Below are positions 46,793 through 51,776 of a stretch of 64,000 nt of DNA, one piece after another (the stretch's first letter is position 1; each line of letters starts with the position of its first letter). The stretch lies in assembly GCF_022846255.1 (NCBI RefSeq), contig NZ_AP025682.1. One strand, written 5' to 3'. A program made the position numbers and the translations under genes. This DNA comes from Escherichia coli (GTDB lineage Bacteria; Pseudomonadota; Gammaproteobacteria; Enterobacterales; Enterobacteriaceae). The notes under the pieces are model-generated. The model was not told the DNA's origin. It worked only from the letters and a program-made list of their open reading frames with translations, and did no database searches.

Positions 46793-47389
46793 TCAAACTT
46801 CTTCTCTTTTTAATTTTTCGTTTATGAGATTATTTCTTTCCCATAATCCGGCAAAACGAGCAGCATTACTGGCGGTATAACGCACAGTATGGCGAATATT
46901 TCGATGCCCGAGATAATCCTGAATTAAACGGGTATCTGCACCACGCTCCGCCAGTTCATAACCGCAAGCATGCCTTAACATATGAGGATGAGTCTGCGTT
47001 ACGGTTCCAGCTTCAATACCGGCATCGCGAATAATGCGATAGGCCTGCTGGCGAGAAAGCCGACTCCCGCGGCGAGAAATAAATATAGCGTCGGTCCGGT
47101 CAGCACCTTTCCAGTTAGCACGTTCCTGGGTCCAGCGTTCCACAGCTTCACGCTCATCAAAACGTAACGGGTGAACGGTAGAAAATCCGTTCTTCAGTCG
47201 GCGAATATTTATTCGACCTTCATTAAGGTCAAGATCCTGATAATGCAGATCAAGCAGTTCACTAATACGCATCCCATGCCGATATGCCAACAGAATAAGA
47301 CAATAATCTCTGGCTCCCGTTGCCCCGTAACACACCGCCTGCATCATGGCCTGAACTTCTTTACCGGTAAGATAACGACGTTTACTCAC
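46793..47389 (-). CDS. fimE: Tyrosine site-specific recombinase (ON-to-OFF inversion of fimS)
   Basis: 198-aa lambda-integrase-family recombinase adjacent to fimS. Confidence 0.95.
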   Translation of the reverse strand: MSKRRYLTGKEVQAMMQAVCYGATGARDYCLILLAYRHGMRISELLDLHYQDLDLNEGRINIRRLKNGFSTVHPLRFDEREAVERWTQERANWKGADRTDAIFISRRGSRLSRQQAYRIIRDAGIEAGTVTQTHPHMLRHACGYELAERGADTRLIQDYLGHRNIRHTVRYTASNAARFAGLWERNNLINEKLKREEV

Positions 47390-47866
47390 AATAGTAGTAC
47401 TCCTGACTGAGATATATTTGAATGAATACCTATAGGAAACCTCAATCGGTCAAAATTAGCCCAATAGATAAAAAGATAACCACACACGAAGTGATGTGGC
47501 TATCAGTCAATTACATTAAATATCATACAAAAATAAAATATCACTGATGTGACAACATCTATTTTCATTGATTTGATTCAATATAACAATAGATTGCAGT
47601 GGATTAACTTCCAGTTGCTTAAAAAATAAAGAAAAAAGTATGAAAACAGGCGAATTTAAGTGATGTGTAAATTTATGAATGATTTTGTTTATTTATTTTG
47701 AAGAACATAAACCATTGTATTTTGTATGGATATGGTTAACTTAATGTTTATTATGATAATTAAGAATCATACTTACAATAACATCAATTAATAAATGGTT
47801 AATCATTTTTGATATATCGTAAGAATAATGTAGTTTTTAACACCATCCCTGGTATCTCAACTATCT

Positions 47867-48469
47867 CTATAAAACAGCGTGACGCTGTCGTCCTCTGGCT
47901 CTATCCCAGATGCCGTAAAAACGCCCTGCATTGCTGGCGGTATACCAGACAGTATGACGAATATTGCGATGTCCAAGATAATCCTGGATAAGTCGCGTAT
48001 CTATTCCCATATTCGCCAAAGCAAAACCACACGAATGGCGTAACATGTGCGGATGAATCTCCAGTGACAACCCGGCATTACCACCGGAAGTCGAGATAAT
48101 ATGGTAAAACTGTTGCCGAGAAAGTGGATTCCCCTTACGTGATAAAAATACCCACTCGCTCTCAGCATGCGGATAAGAAGTACGGATACTCAACCAGTTT
48201 TTTAAAGCCTGAATTTCTTTGTTCAATAGCGGGTGCGTTGTTGAAAAGCCTTTTTTTAATCGATGGATATATATACACTTTGCCTTAAGATCAATATCCG
48301 AAATCCTCAATCGGCAAATTTCACTCGCCCGGAAACCATGAATAAAACAAAGTAATGTCAGACAATAATTACGTGCAGCATGAGGCCCGGTATTTGCTGC
48401 TTTAAGGAGTGATTCGATTTCACTATGGGTCAGGAAGTTCCTTTTTTTGTTATCAGCCTTATTCTTCAT
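47867..48469 (-). CDS. fimB: Tyrosine site-specific recombinase (bidirectional fimS inversion)
   Basis: 200-aa paralogue of FimE. Confidence 0.95.
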   Translation of the reverse strand: MKNKADNKKRNFLTHSEIESLLKAANTGPHAARNYCLTLLCFIHGFRASEICRLRISDIDLKAKCIYIHRLKKGFSTTHPLLNKEIQALKNWLSIRTSYPHAESEWVFLSRKGNPLSRQQFYHIISTSGGNAGLSLEIHPHMLRHSCGFALANMGIDTRLIQDYLGHRNIRHTVWYTASNAGRFYGIWDRARGRQRHAVL

Positions 48470-49494
48470 CGTTTTCCCTTATAATTACAGACGCGCACTA
48501 GCTGTGCTGGGTTAGCAATAATCCAACATTTTAATCCTGATTATGTTTATAAAAGCGAACGTTTGCTTAATAACTAACGTAAGTGGACCAGTTCTTCTGA
48601 GTGAACTTAAATGGAGTAGCGATAGTTACTTATAATAACTTTGCCATACAAACGCCATGCTCTTGCATGCTATGTATCTTTATATATTTATCAATCTGAT
48701 ACGAATCGAATAATAACCCTCATCATTAATGCAACTAATCTTATCTATATATCATGTGATATGTTCTGTAACAAGTAAAATCAACATAAAAAATTCAGCA
48801 AAATTTAATATTTGTTCAACTAGCCGTCTCACATATGACATTATTAGTCAACTGCATTTGCCACAAAATGGCTATTTCATGGAACACAGTAATTTCTTAG
48901 TGGCTATTATCATGCTAATGCTTAGGTCCCTAGCGATTATTCCTGCCTGGTTCGTCAGCTTACGCCATGAGATTGTTACATTCCTTTTTCAGACTGTGTA
49001 TTTCCTGGAGATATGGGGGAACGCAGGAGACGCTTTTTCATCTACATTCGTTGGTAAATATGGCTTTGGTCACTGCGACTTAAACCTTCCTCAATCACAG
49101 CTATTCGCCGGGCGATACGGCAAACAAACTATCTGAAACATCATCCTGAAAACACCAACATCTACAAGCCTTTCCAGATCGACTTCAGGGATGACCACTT
49201 ACAAGCCAAAAACCAGGAAACATATTTCATGATGAGAATTATGATCAGCCTGATGGCGGGTAAACACTTATTTTCACCACGCTCACTGAGTTAGCTTGCA
49301 AAGCTTCCCTTGTTTAGACCCTAAATAAATCATTTATAAAACAAATAGTTAAAAGAATGCCTTTAGTTTTTGAAGACCACCTCAAGTGTTCGTCTGGCTT
49401 CACATGGCATCTTCCTCTTAGAAAAAGATCGACATATTTTGTGACACGAATTGCAAATCTCGTTTTGTTGTATGGATTGCGTGATTTTTGATCT

Positions 49495-49509
49495 GGTATA
49501 ACAGGTATA
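49495..49509. promoter_or_regulatory. NanR-type operator: tandem GGTATA repeats (GGTATAACAGGTATA) in the fimB-nanC intergenic region
   Basis: Two exact GGTATA hexamers spaced by 3 nt, followed by a degenerate third (GGTGCA); NanR is known to bind GGTATA repeats controlling nanC and fimB. Confidence 0.55.
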
Positions 49510-49933
49510 AAGGTGCACCGCGATAGTCAATGAGACAGGGCATCTCGCAATCTATGGCAAACATCACTTCAGTTCTTTCTCATCGGGTGATGAAAACGCA
49601 CTTCAGTCTGAAAGGAATATGAAAATGAGATCAACAGACACTCTATTTTATGACTCTGGGTAAAATGGATTGAGTAAGTGATATAGCTTACAAACATTCA
49701 AATCAATTAAACATCAGAAGAGATTTTATACTCAGGTATTTAATCTGGTTCTCTGTTTATTTAAATAATGTGGAAAGAGAATTTTCACAGGAGACCTTAT
49801 ACAAAAAATATAAAATACAGCTACTCGTTGCCAAAGACACTATAAGCCTGGCAAAAAATATTACACAACATAAATGCTAATTGTTTATGCGGGCTTTGTA
49901 TTGCTTTCTGTATCCTACAAATGAGTGAAATAT

Positions 49934-50650
49934 ATGAAAAAGGCTAAAATACTTTCTGGCGCATTATTACTGTGCTTTTCGTCACCACTGATTTCTCAGG
50001 CTGCGACACTGGACGTACGTGGTGGATATCGTAGTGGAAGCCACGCCTATGAGACTCGACTCAAAGTCAGTGAGGGATGGCAAAATGGATGGTGGGCAAG
50101 TATGGAAAGTAATACCTGGAATACCATTCATGATAATAAAAAGGAAAATGCCGCACTCAATGATGTTCAGGTGGAAGTTAATTACGCGATTAAACTTGAT
50201 GATCAATGGACGGTGCGCCCGGGAATGTTAACGCATTTTAGCAGCAACGGCACACGCTACGGACCCTACGTAAAACTGTCCTGGGACGCGACAAAAGATC
50301 TTAATTTTGGCATTCGCTATCGTTACGACTGGAAAGCTTACCGACAACAAGACTTATCCGGTGATATGTCTCGTGATAACGTTCATCGTTGGGATGGATA
50401 TGTCACTTACCATATTAATAGTGATTTCACCTTCGCATGGCAAACGACGCTATACAGCAAACAGAACGATTATCGCTATGCAAACCATAAGAAATGGGCG
50501 ACGGAAAATGCATTTGTTCTACAATACCATATGACGCCCGATATTACGCCATACATAGAATATGACTACCTTGACCGTCAGGGTGTTTACAACGGCAGAG
50601 ATAATTTATCGGAAAACAGTTATCGCATTGGTGTGTCATTTAAACTGTAG
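49934..50650 (+). CDS. nanC: N-acetylneuraminic acid outer-membrane channel (KdgM-family porin)
   Basis: Signal peptide MKKAKILSGALLLCFSSPLISQA and beta-barrel-like sequence; an alternative GTG start at 49925. Confidence 0.9.
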   Translation: MKKAKILSGALLLCFSSPLISQAATLDVRGGYRSGSHAYETRLKVSEGWQNGWWASMESNTWNTIHDNKKENAALNDVQVEVNYAIKLDDQWTVRPGMLTHFSSNGTRYGPYVKLSWDATKDLNFGIRYRYDWKAYRQQDLSGDMSRDNVHRWDGYVTYHINSDFTFAWQTTLYSKQNDYRYANHKKWATENAFVLQYHMTPDITPYIEYDYLDRQGVYNGRDNLSENSYRIGVSFKL

Positions 50651-50669
50651 TAGACAGGAGACAGTCACA

Positions 50670-51776
50670 ATGAATAAAACAATAACAGCGCTTGCTATCC
50701 TAATGGCTTCATTTGCCGCAAACGCGTCTGTATTACCGGAAACTCCTGTGCCATTTAAAAGTGGTACCGGAGTAATTGATAACGACACTGTCTACATTGG
50801 TTTAGGTAGCGCTGGTACGGCATGGTACAAGCTGGATACACAGGCCAAAGATAAAAAATGGACAGCGTTAGCTGCATTCCCTGGCGGACCGAGAGATCAA
50901 GCAACCTCTGCATTTATTGATGGCAATCTGTATGTGTTTGGCGGCATTGGCAAAAACAGCGAGGGCTTGACTCAGGTATTTAATGACGTACACAAATACA
51001 ACCCCAAAACCAATAGCTGGGTTAAATTGATGTCGCACGCGCCGATGGGCATGGCGGGCCATGTGACTTTTGTACACAACGGCAAGGCTTATGTTACTGG
51101 CGGTGTTAACCAGAATATCTTCAATGGCTATTTTGAAGATCTCAACGAAGCTGGAAAAGATTCAACCACTATAGATAAAATCAACGCCCACTATTTTGAC
51201 AAAAAAGCAGAAGATTATTTCTTCAATAAGTTTCTGTTGTCTTTTGATCCCTCTACACAGCAATGGAGTTACGCTGGCGAATCTCCCTGGTACGGAACGG
51301 CTGGTGCGGCGGTTGTGAATAAAGGTGATAAAACCTGGCTTATTAATGGCGAAGCCAAACCAGGATTGCGAACGGATGCCGTATTTGAACTTGATTTCAC
51401 CGGTAATAATTTAAAATGGAATAAGCTTGCTCCCGTCGCATCACCAGATGGCGTCGCTGGCGGTTTTGCAGGCATGAGCAATGACTCACTTATATTTGCC
51501 GGAGGGGCCGGATTCAAAGGTTCACGAGAAAATTACCAGAACGGTAAGAACTATGCGCATGAAGGCCTGAAAAAATCATATAGCGCTGATATTCATCTTT
51601 GGCATAACGGGAAATGGGATAAATCAGGCGAATTATCGCAAGGTCGGGCCTACGGAGTATCATTGCCCTGGAATAATAGTTTATTAATTATTGGCGGTGA
51701 AACTGCAGGCGGCAAAGCGGTGACGGATTCAGTTTTGATTTCTGTGAAGGATAATAAAGTCACAGTACAAAACTAA
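50670..51776 (+). CDS. nanM: N-acetylneuraminate mutarotase (Kelch-repeat beta-propeller)
   Basis: ATG at 50670 with an aggaga SD; signal peptide MNKTITALAILMASFAANA; the track ORF extends upstream to 50562. Confidence 0.9.
   Translation: MNKTITALAILMASFAANASVLPETPVPFKSGTGVIDNDTVYIGLGSAGTAWYKLDTQAKDKKWTALAAFPGGPRDQATSAFIDGNLYVFGGIGKNSEGLTQVFNDVHKYNPKTNSWVKLMSHAPMGMAGHVTFVHNGKAYVTGGVNQNIFNGYFEDLNEAGKDSTTIDKINAHYFDKKAEDYFFNKFLLSFDPSTQQWSYAGESPWYGTAGAAVVNKGDKTWLINGEAKPGLRTDAVFELDFTGNNLKWNKLAPVASPDGVAGGFAGMSNDSLIFAGGAGFKGSRENYQNGKNYAHEGLKKSYSADIHLWHNGKWDKSGELSQGRAYGVSLPWNNSLLIIGGETAGGKAVTDSVLISVKDNKVTVQN

Follow-up and report, generated by a model that had tools for sequence, protein, structure and literature searches.

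The 1464-bp intergenic region between fimB and nanC (positions 48470–49933, as set by the ORF boundaries, of the 64-kb stretch of Escherichia coli DNA analysed here and called the window below) is very probably the divergent control region of fimB and nanCMS, carried here as a minority allele. Its identity as this known control region follows from its collinearity with K-12, from the exact NanR, NagC and SlyA sites and the geometry in which they are arranged, from the conservation footprint among alleles, and from the absence of genes and known RNAs in the spacer. A preliminary description, made from the sequence alone, had already read the region in this way. The finding is real and was correctly interpreted, and the region itself is already known and well described.

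The ATG at 49934 opens a 238-aa NanC that is the same as in K-12 and RefSeq, and the other features are collected in Table 1. The region has a G+C content of 36.4% against 48.5% for the window. Among the stretches of the 64-kb window that lack an ORF of at least 150 aa it is the longest, at 1455 bp (the runner-up has 973 bp), so that the unusually long non-coding gap of about 1.46 kb claimed in the preliminary description holds exactly. RefSeq places no gene inside the region in K-12 MG1655, the closest genome or the others inspected (9–10 E. coli genomes), and a search of the region for direct or inverted repeat families of at least 12 nt found none. A promoter and terminator scan was uninformative, as it returned three promoter-like sites against 7.0 in shuffles and did not pick up the fimB promoter that has been mapped.

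Table 1. Features of the fimB–nanC region and its flanks, in window coordinates.
Feature	Position	Strand	Remarks
fimE	46793-47389	-	In the window
fimB CDS	47867-48469	-	200 aa; left boundary; ATG at 48469; annotated fimB in K-12 and the closest genome
fimB 5' leader, 271 nt	48470-48740	-	Start placed at about 48740 from the UTR length in PMC3911127
fimB sigma-70 promoter core, TTGTTA-N16-TATATA	48741-48775	-	Putative hexamers, from the sequence upstream of the predicted start
SlyA operators OSA1 (48907-48918) and OSA2 (48922-48933)	48907-48933	-	Exact TTAGCATGATAA and CTAGGGACCTAA; overlap H-NS sites
12-bp insertion CAGACTGTGTAT	48989-49000		Relative to K-12 and seven other alleles; in the variable ONC2–SlyA spacer; flanked by TTCCT direct repeats
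NagC operator ONC2 ('fimB2')	49221-49243	-	Exact match to CATAATTCTCATCATGAAATATG (PMC3098098); invariant in ten alleles
Candidate IHF site	49324-49351		Cluster of three one-mismatch matches to WATCAANNNNTTR; ONC1–ONC2 midpoint 49338
Dam GATC (49427-49430), then NagC operator ONC1 ('fimB1', 49433-49455)	49427-49455	-	Exact TGCAATTCGTGTCACAAAATATG; operator invariant in ten alleles
nanC promoter core, CRP/NagC site through operator	49438-49514	+	Paralogous to the K-12 nanX (yjhB) promoter
Dam GATC (49490-49493), then NanR operator GGTATA-ACA-GGTATA-AA-GGTGCA (49495-49517)		+	Identical to the K-12 nanC/fimB operator
Predicted long nanC leader, about 420 nt, A+T-rich	49518-49933	+	From the operator-to-ATG distance; mostly conserved among alleles
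nanC CDS	49934-50650	+	238 aa; right boundary; nanM and nanS downstream

Two promoter-like sequences can be picked out in the spacer, TTGGCA-16-TATATT (49807–49834, minus strand) and TCAACA-17-TTTAAT (48781–48809, plus strand). Exactly these hexamer pairs, TTGGCA/TATATT and TCAACA/TTTAAT, are listed for the 'fimB' and 'nanC' sides of the spacer in PMC3946193. In each case the gene to which the sequence points is over 1 kb away and the other gene is near, so the two may serve as divergent or antisense promoters or may simply match by chance. (Further out, the window is 98.6% similar to the closest genome across 13.3 kb, up to 52876, just past nanS, at L015 position 13407. The following 900 bp have no long ORF, and the gene set beyond is unlike that of the closest genome. 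The nanS gene is a full-length ORF in the window and a truncated pseudogene in the annotation of the closest genome.)

Does the gap contain a gene of its own? The longest ORF (48729–49136) encodes 135 aa, has a G+C content of 38% and runs antisense across the fimB promoter and the SlyA sites. That its frame is open in the window allele, in the closest genome and, over 131 aa, in two other alleles would speak for a real protein, as would a G+C content that rises to 44–46% in the middle of the region. Stops or frameshifts interrupt this frame in six of the eight other alleles, however, and its substitutions are distributed over the codon positions as 7/13/17, with no clear third-position excess. 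A Pfam search with this and the five shorter ORFs of the region gave no match at E values up to 1, RefSeq has no annotation for any of them in ten genomes, and the position of the longest one, antisense over a mapped promoter and mapped SlyA sites, also argues against coding. It is thus very unlikely that this ORF, or one of those of 42–55 aa, is a real protein-coding gene, and the preliminary description was right to set the predicted ORFs aside as spurious: they have no Pfam match and no RefSeq CDS, and the longest is broken in most other alleles. As for RNAs, an Rfam scan of 47300–50700 gave no match at E values up to 1, and the fold of the fimB leader carried no signal when compared with shuffles (z = +0.39). 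The absence of genes or known RNAs, like the identity, position and conservation of the sites described below, was established on the window allele itself.

The tandem GGTATA repeats to which the preliminary description had drawn attention, GGTATAACAGGTATA at 49495–49509, are indeed there (GGTATA at 49495–49500 and at 49504–49509, with ACA between them). They are followed, after an AA spacer, by a degenerate third unit, GGTGCA at 49512–49517, which that description had missed. Refined in this way to 23 bp, the operator matches the K-12 nanC/fimB NanR operator base for base, and the repeats therefore align with the characterised operator. The sequence in K-12 and in the window is TTGATCTGGTATAACAGGTATAAAGGTGCA, that of the K-12 nanA and nanX (yjhB) operators TTGATCTGGTATAACAGGTATAAAGGTATA, and a 27-nt core, TTGATCTGGTATAACAGGTATAAAGGT, is identical in the K-12 nanA, K-12 nanX and nanC/fimB operators. 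The site thus has what marks a NanR operator, namely at least two direct GGTATA units 2–3 nt apart and identity to a characterised operator. The GATC at 49490–49493 sits 1 nt from the first repeat, well within the 5 bp of a GATC at which NanR binds at all three sialoregulon operators (PMC5155068). On a three-repeat operator, three NanR dimers assemble cooperatively; two GGTATA repeats are bound with the same affinity (KD about 25 nM), also cooperatively, but give only two complexes, and a single repeat or wider spacers abolish binding (PMC8012715). The operator thus has the sequence features that high-affinity NanR binding requires, with a possibly lower occupancy of the third unit: since this repeat is degenerate, two NanR dimers rather than three may occupy the site. 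In genomic SELEX, NanR binds the nanC/fimB spacer (PMC5934670, PMC4797297). The data on binding by NanR and on its relief by Neu5Ac come from K-12 (PMC5934670, PMC8012715), and nanR itself maps beyond the window.

Repeats of this kind could in principle be a functionless, chance feature of A+T-rich DNA, and GGTATA alone is common enough, with 24 copies on the two strands of the window. As a pair, GGTATA-N2-3-GGTATA occurs only once in the window, at the operator, and the 15-mer GGTATAACAGGTATA, allowing up to two mismatches, has one match in the 64 kb against 0.05 expected from shuffles. The 27 nt shared with two other NanR operators would likewise be hard to explain by chance, as would the fact that 4525 of 5426 complete E. 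coli genomes carry the 40-nt operator segment (49480–49519) in identical form while the flanking DNA varies. A chance origin has a negligible probability, and the data on conservation and paralogy already refute it.

For the remaining sites, sequences and distances were taken from papers that quote them, that is, from secondary sources. The two NagC operators listed in Table 1 of PMC3098098, fimB1 (TGCAATTCGTGTCACAAAATATG) and fimB2 (CATAATTCTCATCATGAAATATG), are both matched exactly. Their centres, 49444 for ONC1 and 49232 for ONC2, are 212 bp apart, so that the comparison with mapped NagC sites proposed in the preliminary description comes out in favour of its reading. The GATC at 49427 lies 2 nt from ONC1, and a CRP-like sequence, TGTGACACGAATTGCA (49440–49455, two mismatches), overlaps this operator and aligns with a segment upstream of nanA that is itself read as CRP-like. 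Work of Sohanpal et al. in 2007 reportedly gave the same 212-bp separation between ONC1 and ONC2, and IHF is said in that work to bind midway between the two NagC sites. For IHF, the comparison, made with the consensus, yields near-consensus matches at the expected midpoint.

PMC3173223 locates the SlyA operators OSA1 (TTAGCATGATAA) and OSA2 (CTAGGGACCTAA) upstream of the fimB start, at a distance of 194 to 167 bp, and the fimB 5' UTR is 271 bp long (PMC3911127). With a start at 48740, as this UTR length predicts, the SlyA sites of the window fall at −167 to −193, in agreement with PMC3173223. Counted from the same predicted start, the centre of ONC2 lies at −492, that of ONC1 at −704 and that of the NanR operator at −766. 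The distal module as a whole thus lies some 490–770 bp upstream, which matches the range 'between around 760 and 470 bp' given for these sites in PMC3173223.

How widespread is this arrangement? A megablast search with the 1465 nt from 48470 to 49934 found the region in 5109 of 5426 complete E. coli genomes, at one chromosomal locus adjoining nanC. An identity of at least 99% was seen in 147 of the 5109 matching genomes, which makes the window sequence a minority allele. The most similar sequence comes from a urinary isolate (99.6%), and K-12 (4539502–4540956) aligns end to end and collinearly at about 95% identity. Ten alleles, drawn from the window, K-12, the closest genome, ST131, O157:H7, ETEC, and echidna, cattle and chicken isolates, were then aligned. 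Their variable columns are concentrated at 48950–49050, 49100–49200 and 49300–49400, between the mapped sites. The fimB promoter (48725–48790 identical), the SlyA site OSA2, ONC2 and ONC1 are invariant, and the NanR operator is nearly so, with one spacer SNP in one strain; OSA1 and the 3 bp that separate it from OSA2 have one variable position each. The fimB leader has 0–6 variable columns per 50-bp bin. Judged from the alignment, this is the pattern expected of protein-binding sites joined by loosely constrained spacers.

Two of the differences set the window lineage apart. The 12-bp insertion is not confined to the window, since a 51-nt query across it matched 421 of 5426 complete genomes, NC101 and PMV-1 among them. 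A GATC at 49243–49246 overlaps the edge of ONC2 in the window lineage, and the other eight alleles, K-12 included, have GCTC in its place. One might suppose that the architecture is the known one but that such lineage differences (the insertion at 48989–49000, the extra GATC at ONC2 and the clustered substitutions between sites) alter the strength of the fimB response to sialic acid and GlcNAc. The changes are certainly real, and common to a defined set of genomes, of which the 421 with the insertion are the example; moreover, the distance from the distal sites to the fimB promoter reportedly affected activation in K-12 in Sohanpal and colleagues' 2007 work. On the other hand, all mapped sites and the spacing of ONC1 and ONC2 are unchanged, 12 bp is close to one helical turn, and the variable blocks differ in every lineage, as one would expect from low constraint more than from adaptation. 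An altered response is accordingly unlikely, and we retain the reading of the region as the known control region in a minority allele.

A few alleles differ from the common arrangement in other respects. The GATC adjoining ONC1 is lost (TATC at 49427) in three of them (L008, L010, L011). In a dog wound isolate (NZ_CP029973.1), an IS1 element stands where fimB and the remaining fim genes would be, and also replaces the first 262 bp of the region; fimB is annotated as truncated in the ST131 strain 4993. In both of these strains, the NanR/NagC module is left attached to nanC only.

On the nanC side, the promoter core (49438–49514) shares 86% identity with the sequence upstream of nanX over 77 nt (L004 3568–3644; E = 2e-21), and the likeness between the two promoters extends far past the 23-bp operator. 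From this homology with the nanX core, the 27-nt operator core held in common with nanA, and the position of −61.5 that the CRP-like site would then take, we infer that nanC transcription starts at about 49509. Further downstream, a 28-nt block of the nanC leader (49602–49629) is 82% identical to, and collinear with, a block of the nanX leader (L004 3743–3770; E = 0.006). It contains a Shine-Dalgarno-like AAGGA and an ATG, and this ATG opens a 14-codon ORF (49619–49663, MKMRSTDTLFYDSG).

Such a block raises the question of whether the nanC leader (49518–49933) has a cis-element of its own, either a structured RNA or the short uORF MKMRSTDTLFYDSG, that it shares with the nanX leader. Besides the block itself, with its AAGGA and ATG, the length of the two leaders (both more than 400 nt) and the fact that the nanC leader is mostly conserved among alleles would be consistent with this. 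The leader has no Rfam match at E values up to 1, however, and its fold is no better than that of shuffles (z = −0.78). In a manual comparison of the aligned nanC and nanX sequences, the differences by codon position were 5/5/7, with no third-position bias, and the frames end differently, after 14 codons in nanC and 43 in nanX. In addition, the leader length itself depends on the predicted start. A shared element in the leader is thus quite unlikely. (The uORF at 49619–49663 was also considered as a coding sequence and rejected, the manual codon-by-codon comparison of nanC with nanX giving no coding signature.)

How would the known control region operate in this allele? NanR and NagC binding, the sign of regulation, looping by NagC and the transcription starts are all matters that we infer from K-12 experiments. 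When amino sugars are absent, NanR dimers would bind the GGTATA repeats cooperatively. NagC would also be bound, probably looping the DNA between ONC1 and ONC2 with the help of IHF. (The position of IHF is reportedly that of Sohanpal et al. in 2007.) The NanR operator and ONC1 would overlie the nanC promoter, which is predicted to read away from fimB through the leader of some 420 nt. In the bound state, NanR and NagC would keep nanCMS repressed and, acting over 500–770 bp, would increase transcription of fimB. Neu5Ac would release NanR, and GlcNAc-6-P would release NagC; upon this release nanCMS would be induced, fimB expression would fall, and with it OFF-to-ON switching of type 1 fimbriae.

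Regulation of nanCMS and fimB by NanR and NagC is described in these terms in PMC3173223 and PMC8777976. The opposite signs are stated in PMC4797297, against PMC3173223 and PMC8012715, and were treated as an error because the latter two papers agree. The view of the preliminary description, that sialic acid (NanR) and GlcNAc (NagC) signals converge on the control of fimB, is well supported by the exact operators, their K-12-like distances and the NanR genomic SELEX in K-12, which together suggest that it should apply to the window as well.

What does this mean for the host? The region would couple amino sugars from the host, which are signs of a damaged and inflamed mucosa, to the choice whether to produce type 1 fimbriae, a main adhesin in urinary-tract infection. 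The intact mapped sites in a minority allele support the transfer of the K-12 model to strains with the insertion, such as the ExPEC strains NC101 and PMV-1. There is no new biology in this, and the footprint of near-invariant sites and variable spacers is a useful annotation for comparing or engineering the region. More speculatively, an undescribed element in the leaders of nanC and nanX might control the accessory sialic-acid operons after initiation, or the allele, with its 12-bp insertion and its GATC at ONC2, might retune the response of fimbrial switching to host sialic acid; even taken together, we consider these two proposals improbable.

Among known systems, the nearest is the nanC–fimB region of K-12 (ONR, ONC1, IHF, ONC2), studied by Blomfield, Plumbridge and colleagues. 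The flanking genes and their orientation are the same, and the sequence is collinear. The NanR, NagC and SlyA sites are identical, with the same 212-bp spacing, the same GATC sites stand beside ONR and ONC1, and the length of the fimB leader is equal within 1 nt. The two regions differ by a divergence of about 5% and in length (1464 bp in the window, 1455 bp in K-12), with single-base indels in homopolymer runs. Of the two, it is the window that carries the 12-bp insertion at 48989–49000 and the GATC at 49243–49246 (GCTC in K-12).

The (GGTATA)3 operator of nanATEK-yhcH has the 27 nt of TTGATCTGGTATAACAGGTATAAAGGT in identical form, including the flanking GATC and both spacers, but its third repeat is GGTATA where the window has GGTGCA. 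It also lies about 40 nt from the nanA start codon, whereas the window operator is 417 nt from the nanC ATG, and the homology of the nanA upstream sequence to the window ends at the 27-nt core. The promoter of nanXY (yjhBC) in K-12 resembles that of nanC more fully, in the CRP/NagC-like site, the spacer and the operator, and the distance from operator to ATG is just over 400 nt in both. Unlike the window, nanX has a canonical third repeat, and the rest of the leaders are not recognisably similar. In K-12, nanX is without a fimB-like divergent partner and has an IS4 element upstream.

Outside this group, NanC homologues in other genera (78% identity in Aeromonas sobria and a metagenome, 64% in another bacterium) are preceded by unrelated DNA in which no GGTATA repeats are present. 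The upstream region of one NanC, given as '84% identical', is 96% identical to the window. A search of genome contigs for NanC returned an E. coli locus and, besides that, one 462-bp contaminant contig only. (This contig, from a Terrisporobacter petrolearius assembly, encodes a NanC 99% identical to that of E. coli, and contamination is almost certain.) On sequence grounds, the architecture appears to be restricted to Escherichia and its closest relatives, and the arrangement has been reported in E. coli and in Shigella dysenteriae (PMC8012715).
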